Source: a virus. From it: DNA of 64,000 nucleotides. The stretch is from IMG/VR virus record IMGVR_UViG_3300009365_003824, positions 41,942 to 105,941 of that record; one strand, 5' to 3'. The notes under the pieces were generated by a model. The model searched no databases, was not told the origin of the DNA, and saw nothing but the letters and a program-made list of their open reading frames with translations. Of the stretch, positions 41,181 to 47,896 are shown in pieces; within the stretch, counting starts at the first letter, position 1, and every line of letters starts with the position of its first letter. The translations under genes and the position numbers were made by a program.

Positions 41181-42114
41181 CTTTTTTAACCTGTATTAAG
41201 CCATAATACTTAGTGCCCATGCGTAATAATTTTTTCCCATAACGAGTTATCAAACCCTTTTTGGGATGAAAGGTGTCAGGATCTAGAATAACAGGAGTAA
41301 AAGTTAGCGGAACATAAGGAGAATATTGGTATCCCGCCTCGTAATACCAGAGGTTATCTTCATCATCTTCTTTTTCTCTGCCCCTTAATCCTATAAGCAC
41401 AGTATCTTCGGGAAATTCCACATCAACATACAGTGGACAACCAATGTGGGATACAAAGAAAATTTCATCATCAGTTTCGGGAAATCTACCACTGTAATAT
41501 TCTGATAGCATTTTTCCTATCTTGGGAGAAGTTAAAATCCAATAATCGCTACTTAACAGTGTTTTTCTGTGGATGACATCTTTTATTTCCTTGATTCTAA
41601 AATACCAACCCTCTCCATCTAACCCAGGATCAACAAGAGCTTTAGTTCCAACATTGTTTCGTAAATCTGTTGTGATTTCACGGGTTATTTCATTTGATAT
41701 TTTGGCGGCTAGGTTTTCATCATCCCATTCTGTTTCTGTTTCTAGTCTTTTGGTCCTGGCAGCTATTTCTTCGCTATCTAAAACTAATTTAATTTCATCA
41801 CCATCTTCTTTGAATGCAAGAAAATAAACAAGTCCTGCTGGGCCTAGAAGAGTTTGAATAGAAACGAAATGCCTAGCCATGAGGTTAGAATAAATATCAA
41901 ATACCAGTTGAAGGTCAATCTTACTATGTCCAGATGAGGTTTCGTTCATCAATCGTTGGTTTTCTAATATGATCGCCAACTGTTTTGCATATTCAGAATC
42001 TACTTTCTCAAAAGGAAAATGATCCTTCCACTTCTCAAGACAAGAGGCAGCTTCTTCATCGTGCCTTTTTTTGGAAATCAAAGGGTCGAAAGGGTTTAGT
42101 TTCTTTTTGGCCAT
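41143..42114 (-). CDS. Second gp23/gp24-like capsid protein (possible vertex protein)
   Basis: Shares LENQRL, VSIQ.LLGP.GLVY, SEE.AA.T..L, RE..TDLRNN and YVPLT.TPV.LDP..F.P.KG..TRYGKKLLR with the MCP at 51617-53092. Confidence 0.85.
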   Translation of the reverse strand: MAKKKLNPFDPLISKKRHDEEAASCLEKWKDHFPFEKVDSEYAKQLAIILENQRLMNETSSGHSKIDLQLVFDIYSNLMARHFVSIQTLLGPAGLVYFLAFKEDGDEIKLVLDSEEIAARTKRLETETEWDDENLAAKISNEITREITTDLRNNVGTKALVDPGLDGEGWYFRIKEIKDVIHRKTLLSSDYWILTSPKIGKMLSEYYSGRFPETDDEIFFVSHIGCPLYVDVEFPEDTVLIGLRGREKEDDEDNLWYYEAGYQYSPYVPLTFTPVILDPDTFHPKKGLITRYGKKLLRMGTKYYGLIQVKKDEEKDKPEEASS

Positions 42115-42304: not shown

Positions 42305-43075
42305 ATGCCACACCCGCAATACAACAGATGGCAAACCCCGATAACATTCTCCTCTTATAAAGAGAGAAAGTTGATCAGAAGAATTGACAAAAAATTGGAG
42401 AAGATCGCAAGGTTAGACTATTGCGCAGGCGAGGGTGAAGTGCTTAATCCATTTGACAAACATAGGTTTGCTACTCAGCCCGTATATCATACGAAAGCCC
42501 CAAAAATTAGGGCTAGAGGGCAAATTGTAGTTGCATATCGTGAAATCACTGGGCAATATTCTATCCCATGTGATCGTGGTTATTGGACACTTTGTAACAA
42601 GCAACCTAATGTGGATGGTGCCGAAATCGTACAATTGGTGAAATGTGGGTTGTTGCAAAAAAAGCAGTTTTATGGAATCGACTATGATCTGAATGATGAA
42701 GGCATCATAGAATTCAACCAACAACAACATCCTGAAGCCAATTGGTTCAAAGGCGAGTGGTTAGAAGTCATTGAAGAAAACTACGAGTTGTTCAATCCTG
42801 GTCTAATCTATTTCGATTACACTCGCACAGTTGTTACTCCTGCTTGCCACTTGTATCTAGCTCGCACGATGAATATGTGCCCCCCCAAGACAGTCGTGGC
42901 AGCTAATCTTATGTTGTCGGATGGGCACTCTCGCCGCCGATTCGACCCAGATTTATTGGTCGAAAATCTGGGAATTCATTTAAGATCCCCCAGTAATTGG
43001 GATGTGTATGACAAGTATTATTCGTATAAATCTAGTCATACAGAAATGGCTACTTACATCTTCGTGAGAAAATAA
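42305..43075 (+). CDS. Hypothetical protein, possible divergent Rossmann methyltransferase fold
   Basis: FYGID acidic strand and LIYFD strand; stop abuts helicase ATG. Confidence 0.45.
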   Translation: MPHPQYNRWQTPITFSSYKERKLIRRIDKKLEKIARLDYCAGEGEVLNPFDKHRFATQPVYHTKAPKIRARGQIVVAYREITGQYSIPCDRGYWTLCNKQPNVDGAEIVQLVKCGLLQKKQFYGIDYDLNDEGIIEFNQQQHPEANWFKGEWLEVIEENYELFNPGLIYFDYTRTVVTPACHLYLARTMNMCPPKTVVAANLMLSDGHSRRRFDPDLLVENLGIHLRSPSNWDVYDKYYSYKSSHTEMATYIFVRK

Positions 43076-44950
43076 ATGCATTTACATCCAGCTAATTTTG
43101 ACTACTACGATCCAAATTGGAAGCCCATTACGGCTAATATTGCGGTCTTAAAAGACACCGACCCCAAGGAGTTGGGATATGGTAATCGTGACTACCAAAT
43201 TAGATGCTACGAAGCGTTTCAAGGAAAAAGAAGAACGATATTTATTTCTCCGACAGGCAGTGGTAAAAGTTTAGTGCAGATTTTTAATGCTGCTAGAGAG
43301 ATTATTGAATCGGACTATGAACAAAAACAAGTGTTTATTGTCCCTCAATTGAATATTGGTGATGGTTTCACGGATTACAAACACAAAAAATTGCGGATCA
43401 ATGGTGAAATTTATGGTTGGGAGGTTACTACAAATTGTTGTTTTGACAATGAGCAGTCTGTTAAAAGAATCAGAGGTTTCCTCCTGAAGGATCATCCATG
43501 TAAATCATATCGAGCAAACAAGGTACTAGGAGGTTGCACCGCTGTAGTGAGTTATTCGGCATTGTTGGCAGCTTTTAATAGTATGACTCCTAGAGAAAAA
43601 ATGCGAGCTATTCAGAATACTTCATTTCGTCCCGATGAGGTTCATCATATCTCTGGCGTGGATGAAGGTGGTGTTGCACCAAACCGCTTAGGAGGATTTT
43701 GTAAATTCGTTTTGGACAATGACGGTTGCTTACACTTAACTACGGCGACATTCTTTCGTGGTGATCGGGGTGTAATTCTTGATGGTCATTATCTGGATGA
43801 TTTTGAGGTTTTCCGTGTCCCATTTCTTGAACACTGGGCGACGTTAAGATTAAAAGAACTTCATCAGGACTACCTTTGTTATAAAAATAGCAATGATCTT
43901 TTGAGACAAATTCTAACTGCTGTAGCGGCTGAACCAGATAAGCCACCAATCATCATCGTTCCAGCAGATGGACAAAAGTTCTTTAAACGCACAAACAAAT
44001 GGAAGTGGGTTGAAAGACTCGTGGATGGTTTGACTGAGATTTATGGAGATAGAGTTCTTGATCTTGTTACGCCTGAACGTCAACAACGAGACAAAAAACG
44101 ATTAACTGCTGATGTTCAAGATTTTTGTGCTGTTGTCACTTGTGCCATTGGAAGAGAAGGAACTGATTGGCCAGCATGTTCTCGTGTTCATAACACGGTA
44201 TTAGATGCTAATACTCTGCAACCAATTCAGAAACTCGGAAGAGCTTTGCGTCAACACGAAGAAAAAACCGATATTAAAATGTTTAATTATATTGAGCATT
44301 TTAAGAAGTGGGACGATAGCCCTGATACTGTTCGTGAAAAGCTATCAGATCGTTTCAATGCTGTTGTAATGGCCTCTATGTTGGATGATATGTTTTATCC
44401 CATCCTCATGCCAGCAATACCTCAAGATAAAAACCGCGTTTGCAATGTGACGCTTGAAGATGTGTATGGAAGCAAACGAAATGAATTAGTTGAAGATATG
44501 ATGCGACGATTACTGGCAATTCCCGCATCAAATAGAAACGCTGAAGCCATCAATGAACTTGTTGATGAGATCATTGAAGAATATGAAGACGACATGTTGG
44601 AGGATGTTTCACATGACACCCTCAGAGAACGATTGCGAAAAGAAATTCTCCGTCGCCAAAACCCTAGTAGTCCTAATCTTCGTATGGATGGGATGATTGT
44701 TGATTTTGTTCGTGAGCATGGTTGGGATAAGGTTATACGAAAATATATCGCCAAAAAATCCCCCTTTGTAGGCGTTGCAGCAACTAAAGACCTTGAAAAA
44801 TTGCAAAAGTTTTTAAACAAAGGCGATTGGCTAGAGAATGTTGAACAAATTAAAAAGATAGGACTTGAAAACATACAAAAAGGAAGTCGGCTTTATCATT
44901 TCCTTTTAAAACAACGCCGAGATTTCAGAAAGGCAACGCACAGTGCTTAA
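43076..44950 (+). CDS. Superfamily 2 helicase/ATPase (type III Res-like)
   Basis: RDYQ, SPTGSGKS, DEVHH, TAT, REGTDW, QKLGRALR. Confidence 0.9.
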   Translation: MHLHPANFDYYDPNWKPITANIAVLKDTDPKELGYGNRDYQIRCYEAFQGKRRTIFISPTGSGKSLVQIFNAAREIIESDYEQKQVFIVPQLNIGDGFTDYKHKKLRINGEIYGWEVTTNCCFDNEQSVKRIRGFLLKDHPCKSYRANKVLGGCTAVVSYSALLAAFNSMTPREKMRAIQNTSFRPDEVHHISGVDEGGVAPNRLGGFCKFVLDNDGCLHLTTATFFRGDRGVILDGHYLDDFEVFRVPFLEHWATLRLKELHQDYLCYKNSNDLLRQILTAVAAEPDKPPIIIVPADGQKFFKRTNKWKWVERLVDGLTEIYGDRVLDLVTPERQQRDKKRLTADVQDFCAVVTCAIGREGTDWPACSRVHNTVLDANTLQPIQKLGRALRQHEEKTDIKMFNYIEHFKKWDDSPDTVREKLSDRFNAVVMASMLDDMFYPILMPAIPQDKNRVCNVTLEDVYGSKRNELVEDMMRRLLAIPASNRNAEAINELVDEIIEEYEDDMLEDVSHDTLRERLRKEILRRQNPSSPNLRMDGMIVDFVREHGWDKVIRKYIAKKSPFVGVAATKDLEKLQKFLNKGDWLENVEQIKKIGLENIQKGSRLYHFLLKQRRDFRKATHSA

Positions 44951-45902
44951 AAAATGGCAAATATCGGCACTAGAAAGTATTGAAGGATGGGATGAATTCC
45001 TTGCTAATGCTAATAATGCTGCTGAAAAGAAGCAACTATTATTGGAAATGGCTAGGAATGGAGAGCCAAGGCCACGATCACAAAAACATTATCTTGCGGG
45101 AGCACTAAATTCTTACATCGGTAAGTCAAATAATAGTTACGACCCAGAGTTTGATAAAAAGATTAGAAAATTAGCACCACACTGGTTCGTTAGTACTGCT
45201 GCTAAAAATAAAAAACTGCTGCTAGAAATGGCGAGGAATGGAAAACCACGACCAGTTCAAACAACACAATTGGGATCAGCATTAAACTCTTATACTAAGG
45301 GTTGTTGTGATCTTGTTTTCGACAAAAAAATTAGAGAACTGGCTCCACATTGGTTTGATACTACTGCTAGGAACAAAGAAGCCCTTCTCGAAATGGCAAG
45401 AAGTGGAGAACCACGACCAAATTGTAAAAAGAATCCATTGGGAAAAAGACTTGTGCGTTATATCGGTAAGTCAAGTGGTTCTTATGATCCTGCTTTTGAC
45501 AAAGAAATTAGAAAACTAGCCCCACATTGGTTTGTTGACACTGCTGCTGAAAAAAAACAACTATTGTTGGAAATGGCCAGGAATGGAGAACCACGACCAA
45601 CAAAAAACCCGCTAAAATCAGCATTAAATAATTATCTTTGCGAGGCAAGCGGCTGTTGCGACCCTGTTTTCGACAAAAAAATTAGAAAACTAGCCCCACA
45701 TTGGTTTGTTGATACTGCTGCTGAAAATAAGAAACTATTGTTAGAGATGGCACGCAATGGTGAACCCAGGCCAAATAGCAAAAATGGATCTCTGGGGAAT
45801 TGTCTTGTGCGATATACGAATAATACTAGCTCCTATGATAAAGAGTTTGACAAAAAAATTAGAAAACTAGCTCCGCACTGGTTCAGGAAGAATCATGCTT
45901 AA
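44943..45902 (+). CDS. Repeat protein A (5 helicase-associated-like repeats)
   Basis: 5 copies of LLEMARNGEPRP-variable-FDKKIRKLAPHWF after MLKKWQISALESIEGWDEFL. Confidence 0.8.
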   Translation: MLKKWQISALESIEGWDEFLANANNAAEKKQLLLEMARNGEPRPRSQKHYLAGALNSYIGKSNNSYDPEFDKKIRKLAPHWFVSTAAKNKKLLLEMARNGKPRPVQTTQLGSALNSYTKGCCDLVFDKKIRELAPHWFDTTARNKEALLEMARSGEPRPNCKKNPLGKRLVRYIGKSSGSYDPAFDKEIRKLAPHWFVDTAAEKKQLLLEMARNGEPRPTKNPLKSALNNYLCEASGCCDPVFDKKIRKLAPHWFVDTAAENKKLLLEMARNGEPRPNSKNGSLGNCLVRYTNNTSSYDKEFDKKIRKLAPHWFRKNHA

Positions 45903-46945
45903 AAAATGGCAAATATCGGCACTAGAAAGCATTGAAGGATGGGATGAATTCCTCAATGAGGAATCGTCTTCTGCCAAAAATAAAAAACTGTTGTTGGAAA
46001 TGGCAAGAAATGGAGAGCCAAGACCAAAAAAAAATAAACACCCATTGGGATCTGTACTGACTGCTTATACAGGAAAAATGAGAGATTGTTACGATCCTGT
46101 ATTTGACAAACAAATTAGAGAATTAGCTCCACATTGGTTCATTGCTGTTGTAGAAGAAAATAAAAGACTATTATTGGAAATGGCAAAGAAGGGAAAACCA
46201 AGACCAAAACAAGGCAAACATCCGTTAGGAGGCAAATTGAGTGATTACACCAATGGAATCCATCGTGGTTCTAAATTTGACAAGCAAATTAGAAGATTGG
46301 CACCACATTGGTTTGTCGAACAAACTATCGAACAGAAAAAACAACAACTCCTTGAAATGGCAAGAAATGGCGAGCCAAGACCATCTCAAAGGAAATATCC
46401 TTCACTGGGGTCTGCATTAAGTCGTTATACTGACAAAAACAAATCTTATGATCCTGACTTTGATAGAGAAATTAGAAAATTAGCACCGCATTGGTTTGTT
46501 GATGCTGCTGAAAATAAAAAATTGCTTCTTGAAATGGCTAGGAACGGAGAGCCAAGACCATCTAAGGAAATCCCATTAGGAAGAATAATAAATTATTACT
46601 TTAGGTGCGATCCTGATTTTTACAAGAAGATCAAAGAATTAGCTCCACATTGGTTCGATAGGAAAAGTCATAAGCAATCTAAAATTGCCAAGCAGAAAAA
46701 ACAACAACTTCTTGAAATGGCTCGCAATGGAGAGCCACGACCAAAAAGAAAAAAACACAAATTAGGAATATCATTGGGTTGTTATACCAGTAAAAACAAT
46801 AGTTCTTATGATCCTGCCTTCGACAAGCAGATTAGAAAACTAGCTCCGCACTGGTTCAGGAAGAATCATGCTTAAAAAATGGCAAATATCGGCACTAGAA
46901 AGTATTGAAGGATGGGATGAATTCCTTAATGAAGAATCTTCTTCT
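44944..46945 (+). repeat. Three near-identical gene-junction repeats
   Basis: tgcttaaaaaatggcaaatatcggcactagaaag(t/c)attgaaggatgggatgaattcct from 44944, 45896 and 46869; the last two also share upstream attagaaaactagctccgcactggttcaggaagaatca. Confidence 0.92.
45895..46875 (+). CDS. Repeat protein B (5 repeats)
   Basis: Same leader peptide and repeat scaffold. Confidence 0.8.
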   Translation: MLKKWQISALESIEGWDEFLNEESSSAKNKKLLLEMARNGEPRPKKNKHPLGSVLTAYTGKMRDCYDPVFDKQIRELAPHWFIAVVEENKRLLLEMAKKGKPRPKQGKHPLGGKLSDYTNGIHRGSKFDKQIRRLAPHWFVEQTIEQKKQQLLEMARNGEPRPSQRKYPSLGSALSRYTDKNKSYDPDFDREIRKLAPHWFVDAAENKKLLLEMARNGEPRPSKEIPLGRIINYYFRCDPDFYKKIKELAPHWFDRKSHKQSKIAKQKKQQLLEMARNGEPRPKRKKHKLGISLGCYTSKNNSSYDPAFDKQIRKLAPHWFRKNHA

Positions 46946-47308
46946 GACAAAAAGAAAAAACTGCTTCTTGAAATGGCACGGAATGGAGAACCACGACCAA
47001 AGAGTAAAAAACATCCGGGTGTAGCATTGAGTAATTACATCAGTAAGTCAAGTAATGCTTACGATTCAGACTTCGATAAGAAAATTAGAAAACTGGCACC
47101 ACACTGGTTTGTTGATGCTGTTGCTGAAAAGAAAAAACTGCTTCTTGAAATGGCAAAGAATGGTGAACCACGACCGAAGTGCGTCTTCGGCCAGAAAAGC
47201 AATCCATTGGGAAGGGCGTTAAGGGATTACATCAGTAAGTCAAGTGGCTCTTACGATCCTACTTTCGACAAGCAGATTAGAAAACTAGCACCGCACTGGT
47301 TCAATTAG
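46868..47308 (+). CDS. Repeat protein C (2 repeats)
   Basis: Same leader peptide and repeat scaffold. Confidence 0.8.
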   Translation: MLKKWQISALESIEGWDEFLNEESSSDKKKKLLLEMARNGEPRPKSKKHPGVALSNYISKSSNAYDSDFDKKIRKLAPHWFVDAVAEKKKLLLEMAKNGEPRPKCVFGQKSNPLGRALRDYISKSSGSYDPTFDKQIRKLAPHWFN

Positions 47309-47896
47309 TGCCTGAGAATCCTTAGAGAGCTTTTTTAAAATTTTCCACTTGGTATCGGTTGCACACTCAATAAGCTGAATAGGCTTCCATATCATGTGAT
47401 GTGGGCTTTTTAAATAACGCTGCTCAGCCTCTCCCTCTGTCATGTAGTCCAGACATGCCTCTTGAGCTAATAGCCTCTTAGTGTGCTTCTTAGCGTTTTT
47501 AATTAAATCTATGGCTTGAGGCATAGTCAAATGCTGAATTACATGCACACAACAAGCTAAATCAAACTGTCCTATGTCCCAATTATCCTCGACCAAATGG
47601 AATTTCACATTATCTGAGGCGTAATTTTTAGAGGCGTAATCCACCCTAGCAGCAGTGATGTCAATTCCAACGTAGGATTTAAAAGGCAAGATGGCTGAAT
47701 ATCTGCCATATCCACACCCTATTTCCAGAATCCTTTTCCCTGCTGTCTCTTTTTTAAGCCATTCCACAGCGTCAGAATTGACCCCATCAAGGTGAGCATC
47801 ATTATTAAAGAGGCGAACCACCCCATTCAGAGCTTTTTCAGTTCTTGCATTGAAGTCTTCAACTATGTCGTAGTCTCGACCTGTCCAAATACTCAT
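47285..47896 (-). CDS. Class I SAM-dependent methyltransferase
   Basis: ILEIGCGYGR, YVGIDI, FDL...VIQH. Confidence 0.85.
   Translation of the reverse strand: MSIWTGRDYDIVEDFNARTEKALNGVVRLFNNDAHLDGVNSDAVEWLKKETAGKRILEIGCGYGRYSAILPFKSYVGIDITAARVDYASKNYASDNVKFHLVEDNWDIGQFDLACCVHVIQHLTMPQAIDLIKNAKKHTKRLLAQEACLDYMTEGEAEQRYLKSPHHMIWKPIQLIECATDTKWKILKKLSKDSQALIEPVRC

Follow-up and report, generated by a model that had tools for sequence, protein, structure and literature searches.

The locus

The stretch of DNA described here, called the window, covers 64,000 nucleotides (nt) of an IMG/VR provirus record of 105,941 bp (IMGVR_UViG_3300009365_003824, positions 41,942 to 105,941), and its subject is a set of five co-oriented genes that form one cassette. 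They encode a protein of 256 amino acids (aa), a superfamily 2 (SF2) helicase, and three repeat proteins named RepA, RepB, and RepC. The point of interest is the border between the helicase and the repeat proteins. Judging from sequence, the last 42 residues of the helicase and a 20-aa leader common to the three repeat proteins are very likely the halves of one divergent unit resembling the HA domain, the first two helices being contributed by the former and the last helix by the latter.

All five genes lie on the plus strand. The open reading frame (ORF) of the 256-aa protein, a partner with a predicted fold like that of class I S-adenosylmethionine (SAM)-dependent methyltransferases, occupies positions 42305-43075, and its stop codon abuts the ATG of the helicase. 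The helicase itself (43076-44950; 624 aa) is recognized by Pfam ResIII with 31.5 bits and by PHROG 16, DNA helicase, with an E value of 2.7e-16; it also matches Pfam DEAD and Helicase_C weakly. Its C-terminal tail, residues 583-624, is encoded by 44822-44947, with G583 beginning at base 44822; this is the part proposed to form helices 1 and 2 of the split domain, an arrangement named type-2 below.

RepA (44943-45902; 319 aa) starts with GTG and consists of the leader (44943-45002), which is the proposed helix 3, and five repeats of ∼55 aa, delimited by its ORF and by a repeat hidden Markov model (HMM). RepB (45895-46875; 326 aa) starts with ATG and has the leader (45895-45954) and again five repeats. 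RepC (46868-47308; 146 aa) also starts with ATG, and its leader (46868-46927) is followed by two repeats. The first 20 residues are identical in the three proteins, the GTG of RepA being read as formylmethionine, and this is clearly not a product of chance.

Each leader overlaps the end of the gene before it by 8 nt, (A/G)TGCTTAA, at 44943-44950, 45895-45902, and 46868-46875. At the first of these junctions the overlap is GTGCTTAA, and the helicase stop falls inside codons 2-3 of RepA; at the other two, ATGCTTAA overlaps the stops of RepA and RepB. The start-to-start offsets of 1867, 952, and 973 nt are all of the form 3n+1, and each gene is thus in the +1 frame with respect to the preceding one. 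As the upstream TAA is formed by leader codons 2-3 (CTT AAA), this frame relation is built into the leader cassette. The sequence therefore bears out what the original prediction had described, namely the helicase tail as quoted there, the 20-aa leader shared by RepA, RepB, and RepC, and the +1 frame.

Resemblance to the HA domain

The original prediction went further, and held that tail and leader, once joined, resemble a complete HA domain. In Pfam, HA (PF03457) is a short three-helix unit that occurs in tandem, C-terminal to SF2 helicases, and for which a solved structure is available (PDB 2KTA, residues 627-691 of BVU_0683 from Bacteroides vulgatus). HA is reported to bind DNA, according to the citation of Mills et al. 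2013 in PMC12191111 (reference 64 therein). The position is the expected one: the tail directly follows the SF2 core, and in relatives HA arrays are either fused at this place (locus L005) or encoded by adjacent genes (L037 and L040). A conserved pattern can also be read over tail and leader, with a W in helix 1, L-x-x-aromatic and QR in helix 2, and LE-x-x-G-W in helix 3.

How far does this resemblance extend? The Pfam profile is absent at E ≤ 1 from the helicase, RepA, RepB, and RepC, and a six-frame scan of the whole 105,941-bp record gives no PF03457 match at E ≤ 10. The gathering score of this profile is 28.4 bits, which the window pieces do not reach. A local HA HMM was built from the bona fide HA copies of related loci, and against it the window join (the read-through sequence P0121) produces a single match that spans the junction, with 12.2 bits over HMM positions 23-57. 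This score is reached by none of 300 leader shuffles and by 18 of 300 tail shuffles.

Further evidence comes from profile-profile comparison with the leaders of a second class of related loci (type-1, described below), which are truncated HA units. The type-2 leaders align with the last helix of the type-1 leaders (hhalign probability 93.7%, P 2e-7), and the joined type-2 tail and leader match them in one alignment of 32 columns that runs across the gene boundary (94%, P 1.4e-7). Tails alone align with HA helix 2 of the type-1 leaders at the expected place (P 0.0016). Against full HA copies, the joined profile gives a P of 5.4e-5 and the tail alone 0.0096. At L038, the leader by itself scores 13.7 bits, and with the tail joined to it 36 bits over HMM 4-57. 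Profile-profile homology to truncated HA leaders is the part of the predicted resemblance that stands; a match of either half, or of the join, to the Pfam profile is the part that does not. As the halves found in the window escape Pfam HA, one can go no further than to call them HA-like by transitive homology, and the tail's part in this homology is the weaker link.

The possibility that the split module is just another copy of the body repeat, here called the LLEMA-type repeat, was rejected, with an hhalign P of 0.28 for the joined module against that repeat. The LLEMA-type repeats are in turn not demonstrably HA (hhalign P 0.037).

Structure prediction gave nothing decisive. The AlphaFold2 (AF2) model of the joined P0121, made from a single sequence, has low confidence (predicted local distance difference test, pLDDT, 64) and places helices at residues 24-33, 43-57, and 64-71, where HA would have them. 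RepC, modeled with an alignment, reaches a pLDDT of 90.9 and shows three helices per repeat. Foldseek found nothing at E ≤ 0.001 with the joined model, nor with that of RepC. A wide VIA-align search with RepC ranked 2KTA 16th (Z 3.6, root-mean-square deviation 4.4, 65 residues aligned), tied with unrelated helical proteins. Complex prediction with helicase residues 520-624 and RepC 1-75 gave scores of 0.21 and 0.23, under the mark of 0.32, and these were used neither for nor against binding.

Three architectures among relatives

Helicase homologues numbered 147 at E ≤ 1e-5; 65 loci were fetched, and further ones were added by genome search. Among these loci, numbered with the prefix L, three architectures recur: fused, type-2 split, and type-1 split. 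Other searches contributed little. The cassette had no blastn match in the phage collection, a word-index search with helicase residues 556-624 gave two uninformative matches, and a contig scan for further loci returned one, a duplicate of L031.

The type-2 loci include the window, L002, L003, L007, L014, L020, L026, L027, and others. They combine a long helicase tail with a one-helix leader, which opens one to four adjacent genes and in whose alignment W16 is invariant; W5, L10, I13, and W16 make up its conserved hydrophobic face. The tail is conserved in 35 non-identical homologues and lies within 15 aa of the C-terminus in 58 of 58 HMM hits, so the helicase stop is old and cannot be put down to a recent lesion or to faulty assembly.

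In the type-1 loci (L031, L035, L036, L037, L038, L040, and L043) the helicase is shorter at its end by about one helix, and the leader is longer, with two helices. Pfam HA matches these leaders solely over profile positions ∼31-63, the C-terminal half: leader residues 20-47 of L040 correspond to positions 36-63 (E 9.2e-6), the leader of L036 to 32-63 (E 1e-4), and those of L035 and L043 are detected at E 1.1e-3 and 0.028. The partner bodies at L037 are bona fide HA arrays of five copies (E 2e-46, 156 bits), which match 2KTA, the HA domain of known structure. Scored with the local HA HMM, every partner has a first copy that begins at HMM 14-26, at residue 2-7 of the protein, and later copies that begin at HMM 1-4. 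Might the starts have been called wrongly? In-frame stops 1-13 codons upstream fix the N-termini and leave no alternative start, which rules this out. Since the first copies begin in the middle of the HMM and their N-termini are fixed in this way, the type-1 leaders are truly N-terminally truncated HA units.

In the fused relatives P0019, P0020, P0024, L009, L022, and L029, LLEMA-type repeats follow the helicase core in frame, with neither tail nor leader. Together with L005, these proteins share with the window the helicase core (up to ∼58% identity), the repeat family, and the attachment point; they differ from it in their covalent link, in the absence of tail and leader, and in having one array where the window has several to choose from. 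Tail and leader sit exactly where the fused relatives have their covalent link. L022 even nests within the window's own helicase clade.

The gene that follows the fusion at this last locus (L022:2172-3047) begins partway through a repeat, lacking the first helix as well as a leader, while the preceding protein ends in a complete repeat. Therefore, not every truncated N-terminus has a visible complement.

Conservation and movement of the split

Is the split simply inherited, or is it kept? Several observations on the relatives touch on this question. In the 21 loci with enough flanking sequence, leader genes of the matching kind were found near 13 of 13 type-2 helicases and 8 of 8 type-1 helicases, with no mismatched pair. 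Tail and leader are both retained as helicase identity falls from 80% to ∼28%, and one leader type precedes at least four unrelated types of body. The leader is the best-conserved part of the paralogues in most loci: in the window its identity is 100% vs 53-63% for the bodies, and at L026 it is 94% vs 54-56%.

The position of the cut has also moved. On the helicase tree, type-1 and type-2 loci interleave, with at least three changes of the cut point. L035, which is type-1, is sister to the type-2 loci L026 and L027 with a value of 100 in the Shimodaira-Hasegawa-like approximate likelihood ratio test (SH-aLRT), and these sisters carry the same domain cut at different loops. Monophyly of type-2 is rejected by the approximately unbiased (AU) test (p-AU 3.6e-52), with the caveat that the split groups compared were named after the tree had been seen.

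Gene order is not fixed either. At L001, L011, and L012, whose helicases are 67-75% identical, the leader-bearing genes, three or more, come right after a gene for a methyltransferase-fold protein and before the helicase, which keeps its tail; L031 has the same arrangement for type-1. At L001, a terminator-like hairpin follows the helicase. L001 and L012 had been taken for exceptions without partners, and this was rejected when the partner genes were found upstream.

The same logic recurs with another family of repeats. At L033 (6600-10656), a different repeat of ∼51 aa, marked by a PEEW motif, is split between the C-terminus of the helicase, which ends with the first third of a unit, and a 44-aa leader. 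This leader is shared by three paralogues whose bodies are of three repeat types. The leaders cover positions 14-51 of the repeat HMM, and the joined sequence covers 1-51 across the junction with 54-56 bits.

Translation of the cassette

How are these overlapping genes expressed? Shine-Dalgarno-like motifs precede each start: AGAAAGG lies 9 nt 5′ of the GTG of RepA, and AGGAAG lies 4 nt 5′ of the ATG of RepB and of RepC. In each of the three Rep frames a stop lies 8-11 codons upstream, no other start codon comes in between, and no internal promoter or terminator signal rises above background in the window operon. These features indicate that the genes of the window are very probably translated separately. 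The cassette probably represents a case of overlapping genes with putative translational coupling of separate initiations; coupling of the four separately translated genes is probable because the upstream stop lies inside leader codons 2-3.

A different mechanism had also been offered, in which a programmed +1 ribosomal frameshift at GCT-TAA-AAA yields fusions of the helicase with RepA, or with RepA, RepB, and RepC, of graded length. Such a mechanism would be in keeping with the three junctions, all of which set the next gene in the +1 frame and have a stop followed by a run of A, and with the relatives that do encode fused helicase-repeat proteins. However, these natural fusions lack tail and leader, and each repeat gene can start on an ATG or GTG of its own, preceded by a Shine-Dalgarno-like motif, with no other start available further upstream. 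Neither a conserved slippery site nor a downstream frame devoid of initiation signals of its own is found. Homologous junctions differ in spacing (-8, -7, -4, -1, +1 to +7, -11, -14, and -23), fall in different frames, and take the forms ATGCTTA(A/G), ATGCGTAG, ATGCTAG, ATGA, 1-nt overlaps, or gaps of 1-7 nt; either alternative frame is used, some genes do not overlap at all, and each has its own ATG. At L031, and in the closest relatives (L001, L011, and L012), the leader genes come before the helicase.

The varied junctions and the upstream leader genes exclude a conserved +1 shift out of the helicase as a general mechanism. By established decoding rules, moreover, the alanine tRNA that decodes GCU cannot re-pair on CUU, which makes a +1 shift in this window very unlikely as well. 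The frameshift was therefore abandoned as an account of the cassette, for which it is now highly improbable.

At L003 (10038-11040), the fourth leader gene has just 59 codons. A GTG 7 nt further on opens a different frame in which the repeats continue, and the gene appears to be a copy broken by a frameshift.

Interpretation

The following scheme would account for these observations. An ancestral helicase would have borne a C-terminal array of small three-helix repeats, and its gene would have been cut inside the first, HA-like unit. The helicase of the window would then have kept helices 1 and 2 (residues 583-624), and the missing helix 3 would be the 20-aa leader that opens RepA, RepB, and RepC. 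The four genes would be translated separately, probably coupled through the overlaps of start and stop. The leader helix would pack into the half-domain of the helicase in trans, rebuilding the three-helix unit, and this docking would attach one or another of the three repeat arrays to the motor, where the fused relatives have a covalent link instead. By analogy with HA, the arrays are presumed to be DNA-binding.

We consider it fairly likely, on indirect evidence from comparison of sequences, that the halves dock in trans. We infer a physical re-association of the two, in which the arrays may act as alternative specificity arms. In this respect, the proposal that tail and leader are halves of one domain, with RepA, RepB, and RepC as plug-in subunits, finds support in the comparative and profile evidence, and it falls short in that Pfam HA misses the halves of the window. 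A broader proposition appears to us evenly balanced: the HA-like three-helix domain may be a natural fragment-complementation plug, with a socket on the helicase (helices 1-2, or helix 1 alone in some lineages) and a leader plug on every DNA-binding repeat array, by which the motor and its methyltransferase-fold partner would be re-armed with alternative targeting arms. Its cut point would have moved at least three times, and the device would have been repeated with an unrelated repeat family. In such a plug-and-socket arrangement, the moved cut point and the recurrence in the unrelated family would point to selection for the non-covalent link itself.

The main competitor of docking is a relic of gene fission. 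In that case remnants of the cut domain persist, the repeat proteins are independent of the helicase, and the leader has another role: it caps the array, binds the methyltransferase-fold partner, or carries the coupling signal. We hold this to be rather unlikely, and several findings speak in its favor or weigh against docking. The leader is well ordered in the AF2 model of RepC itself (helices at 4-11 and 16-20, pLDDT 80-85) and could cap the array. Within the leader cassette lie the stop codon of the preceding gene and a Shine-Dalgarno-like motif. Near-identity at the junctions of RepA with RepB (45858-45954) and of RepB with RepC (46831-46927) begins ∼45 nt upstream, in the 3′ end of the preceding gene; because it covers these 3′ ends, the near-identity of the leaders in the window owes no less to recent duplication or gene conversion than to selection, and such events explain it in large part. 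The interleaving seen on the tree would also result if the 3′ end of the helicase gene and the leader cassette recombined together. The HA signal of the tail is weak: since 18 of the 300 tail shuffles reach the junction score, the tail's share of it is only weakly above composition, and the joined profile obtains an hhalign probability of only 66% against full HA copies. PF03457 goes undetected at E ≤ 10 in the tail, in the leader, in the joined P0121, and likewise in the joined read-throughs from L002 and L014 (P0122 and P0123). Finally, among the 58 HMM hits there is no homologue with tail and leader contiguous in one frame, so that the intact ancestral form of the module is undocumented.

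However, a mere relic fits poorly with the history of the two pieces. Both are kept over the whole range of helicase identity and in front of the unrelated bodies, and the halves remain complementary while the cut point shifts. The leader is retained in genes upstream of the helicase despite the different coupling context there, and the logic of the split recurs in the second repeat family, at L033. The fused forms, for their part, have lost both remnants together. It had been asked whether fused homologues exist at all, and the answer is twofold: fusions of helicase and repeats do exist, without both pieces, and fusions of tail and leader in one frame do not occur among the hits. Since the fused relatives are missing both pieces, they support the docking idea rather than refute it.

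Could tail and leader be unrelated short helices with a coincidental HA-like pattern? The absence of Pfam HA from the window pieces and from all three joined read-throughs would suit such a chance resemblance, as would the modest outcome of the tail-shuffle control and the fold searches, which returned nothing specific. Against it stand the boundary-crossing alignment of the joined module with truncated HA leaders that are themselves supported by Pfam, the leader shuffles, none of which reaches the score, and the sister loci L035 and L026/L027 with their differently cut copies of the same domain. We regard coincidence as improbable.

Comparison with known systems

Two elements of this arrangement are already known, namely HA arrays on helicases and conserved N-terminal anchors on swappable phage proteins. 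With respect to the Pfam HA domain, the one in the window differs in being divided over two polypeptides and in escaping the profile, and the bodies that follow it are LLEMA-type repeats whose relation to HA is not demonstrable, as the Z of 3.6 to 2KTA also illustrates. The N-terminal anchors of phage tail fibers and spikes and the docking domains of modular synthases offer another parallel, in that a short conserved module attaches divergent bodies to a common scaffold. Here, however, the proposed anchor is just one piece of a domain, the remainder being carried by the partner, and a helicase takes the place of the virion or synthase as scaffold. Genes are also known to have been split naturally within a domain, for example those of Nanoarchaeum, where two ORFs hold incomplete domains and the pieces must associate. 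In contrast to these, the present case has one fragment in several copies, each on a different paralogous partner, and among relatives the cut point has shifted from loop to loop. A limited literature search found no paper on a split HA unit or on this phage cassette.

What would be gained if the halves do re-associate? They would constitute a compact natural heterodimerization module of ∼42 + 20 residues, available in many diverged and possibly orthogonal variants, and a clear case of a domain split that is retained for function and not by accident. The scheme would also provide a working model for a widespread unannotated set of phage genes, encoding an SF2 helicase, a methyltransferase-fold protein, and several "hypothetical" repeat proteins, in which one motor is aimed by swappable DNA-binding arrays. 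The real interest, if binding is shown, lies in the moving cut point and in the logic of a plug and socket with multiple partners. For annotation, the message is that short leaders and helicase tails belong together, that overlapping +1 starts are not frameshift sites, and that a first repeat cut short in such proteins does not come from faulty assembly.

The methyltransferase-fold partner and other arrangements

The 256-aa protein has no match in Pfam, PHROG, or PADLOC. An Atlas structure search connects it with clusters of class I methyltransferases at TM scores of 0.54-0.63, which is a lead only. It accompanies the helicase in many loci. Its orthologues are found at L001 (1436-2221), L004 (8036-8596), L008 (10939-11541), and L031 (∼1524-1757), and their order varies: the gene is upstream of the helicase in the window and at L001, downstream of it at L004, and after the repeat genes at L008. 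PADLOC, applied to the locus, returned just weak PbeA-like matches to helicase motifs.

Other sets of genes around these helicases have a similar look. At L010 (8108-11394) and L056 (7112-9830), three paralogues per locus have a common leader of ∼20 aa, unlike the HA-type leaders, and differing bodies, one of which is a LLEMA-type repeat; the C-terminus of the helicase is longer and different (765-792 aa). At L006 (7899-10400), and also at L049 and L063, a distant homologue of the helicase precedes six or more small glycine-rich proteins of 100-140 aa, whose genes overlap by ATGA. These small proteins share an N-terminal motif, MS-x-Q-R-I-E-Y-G, and could be another set of leaders with variable bodies.

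In the window, the cassette is met at its far end by a convergent ORF of 203 aa on the minus strand (47285-47896), which overlaps the 3′ end of RepC by 24 nt. Its product has a glycine-rich motif, E-I-G-C-G-Y-G, typical of SAM-dependent methyltransferases.

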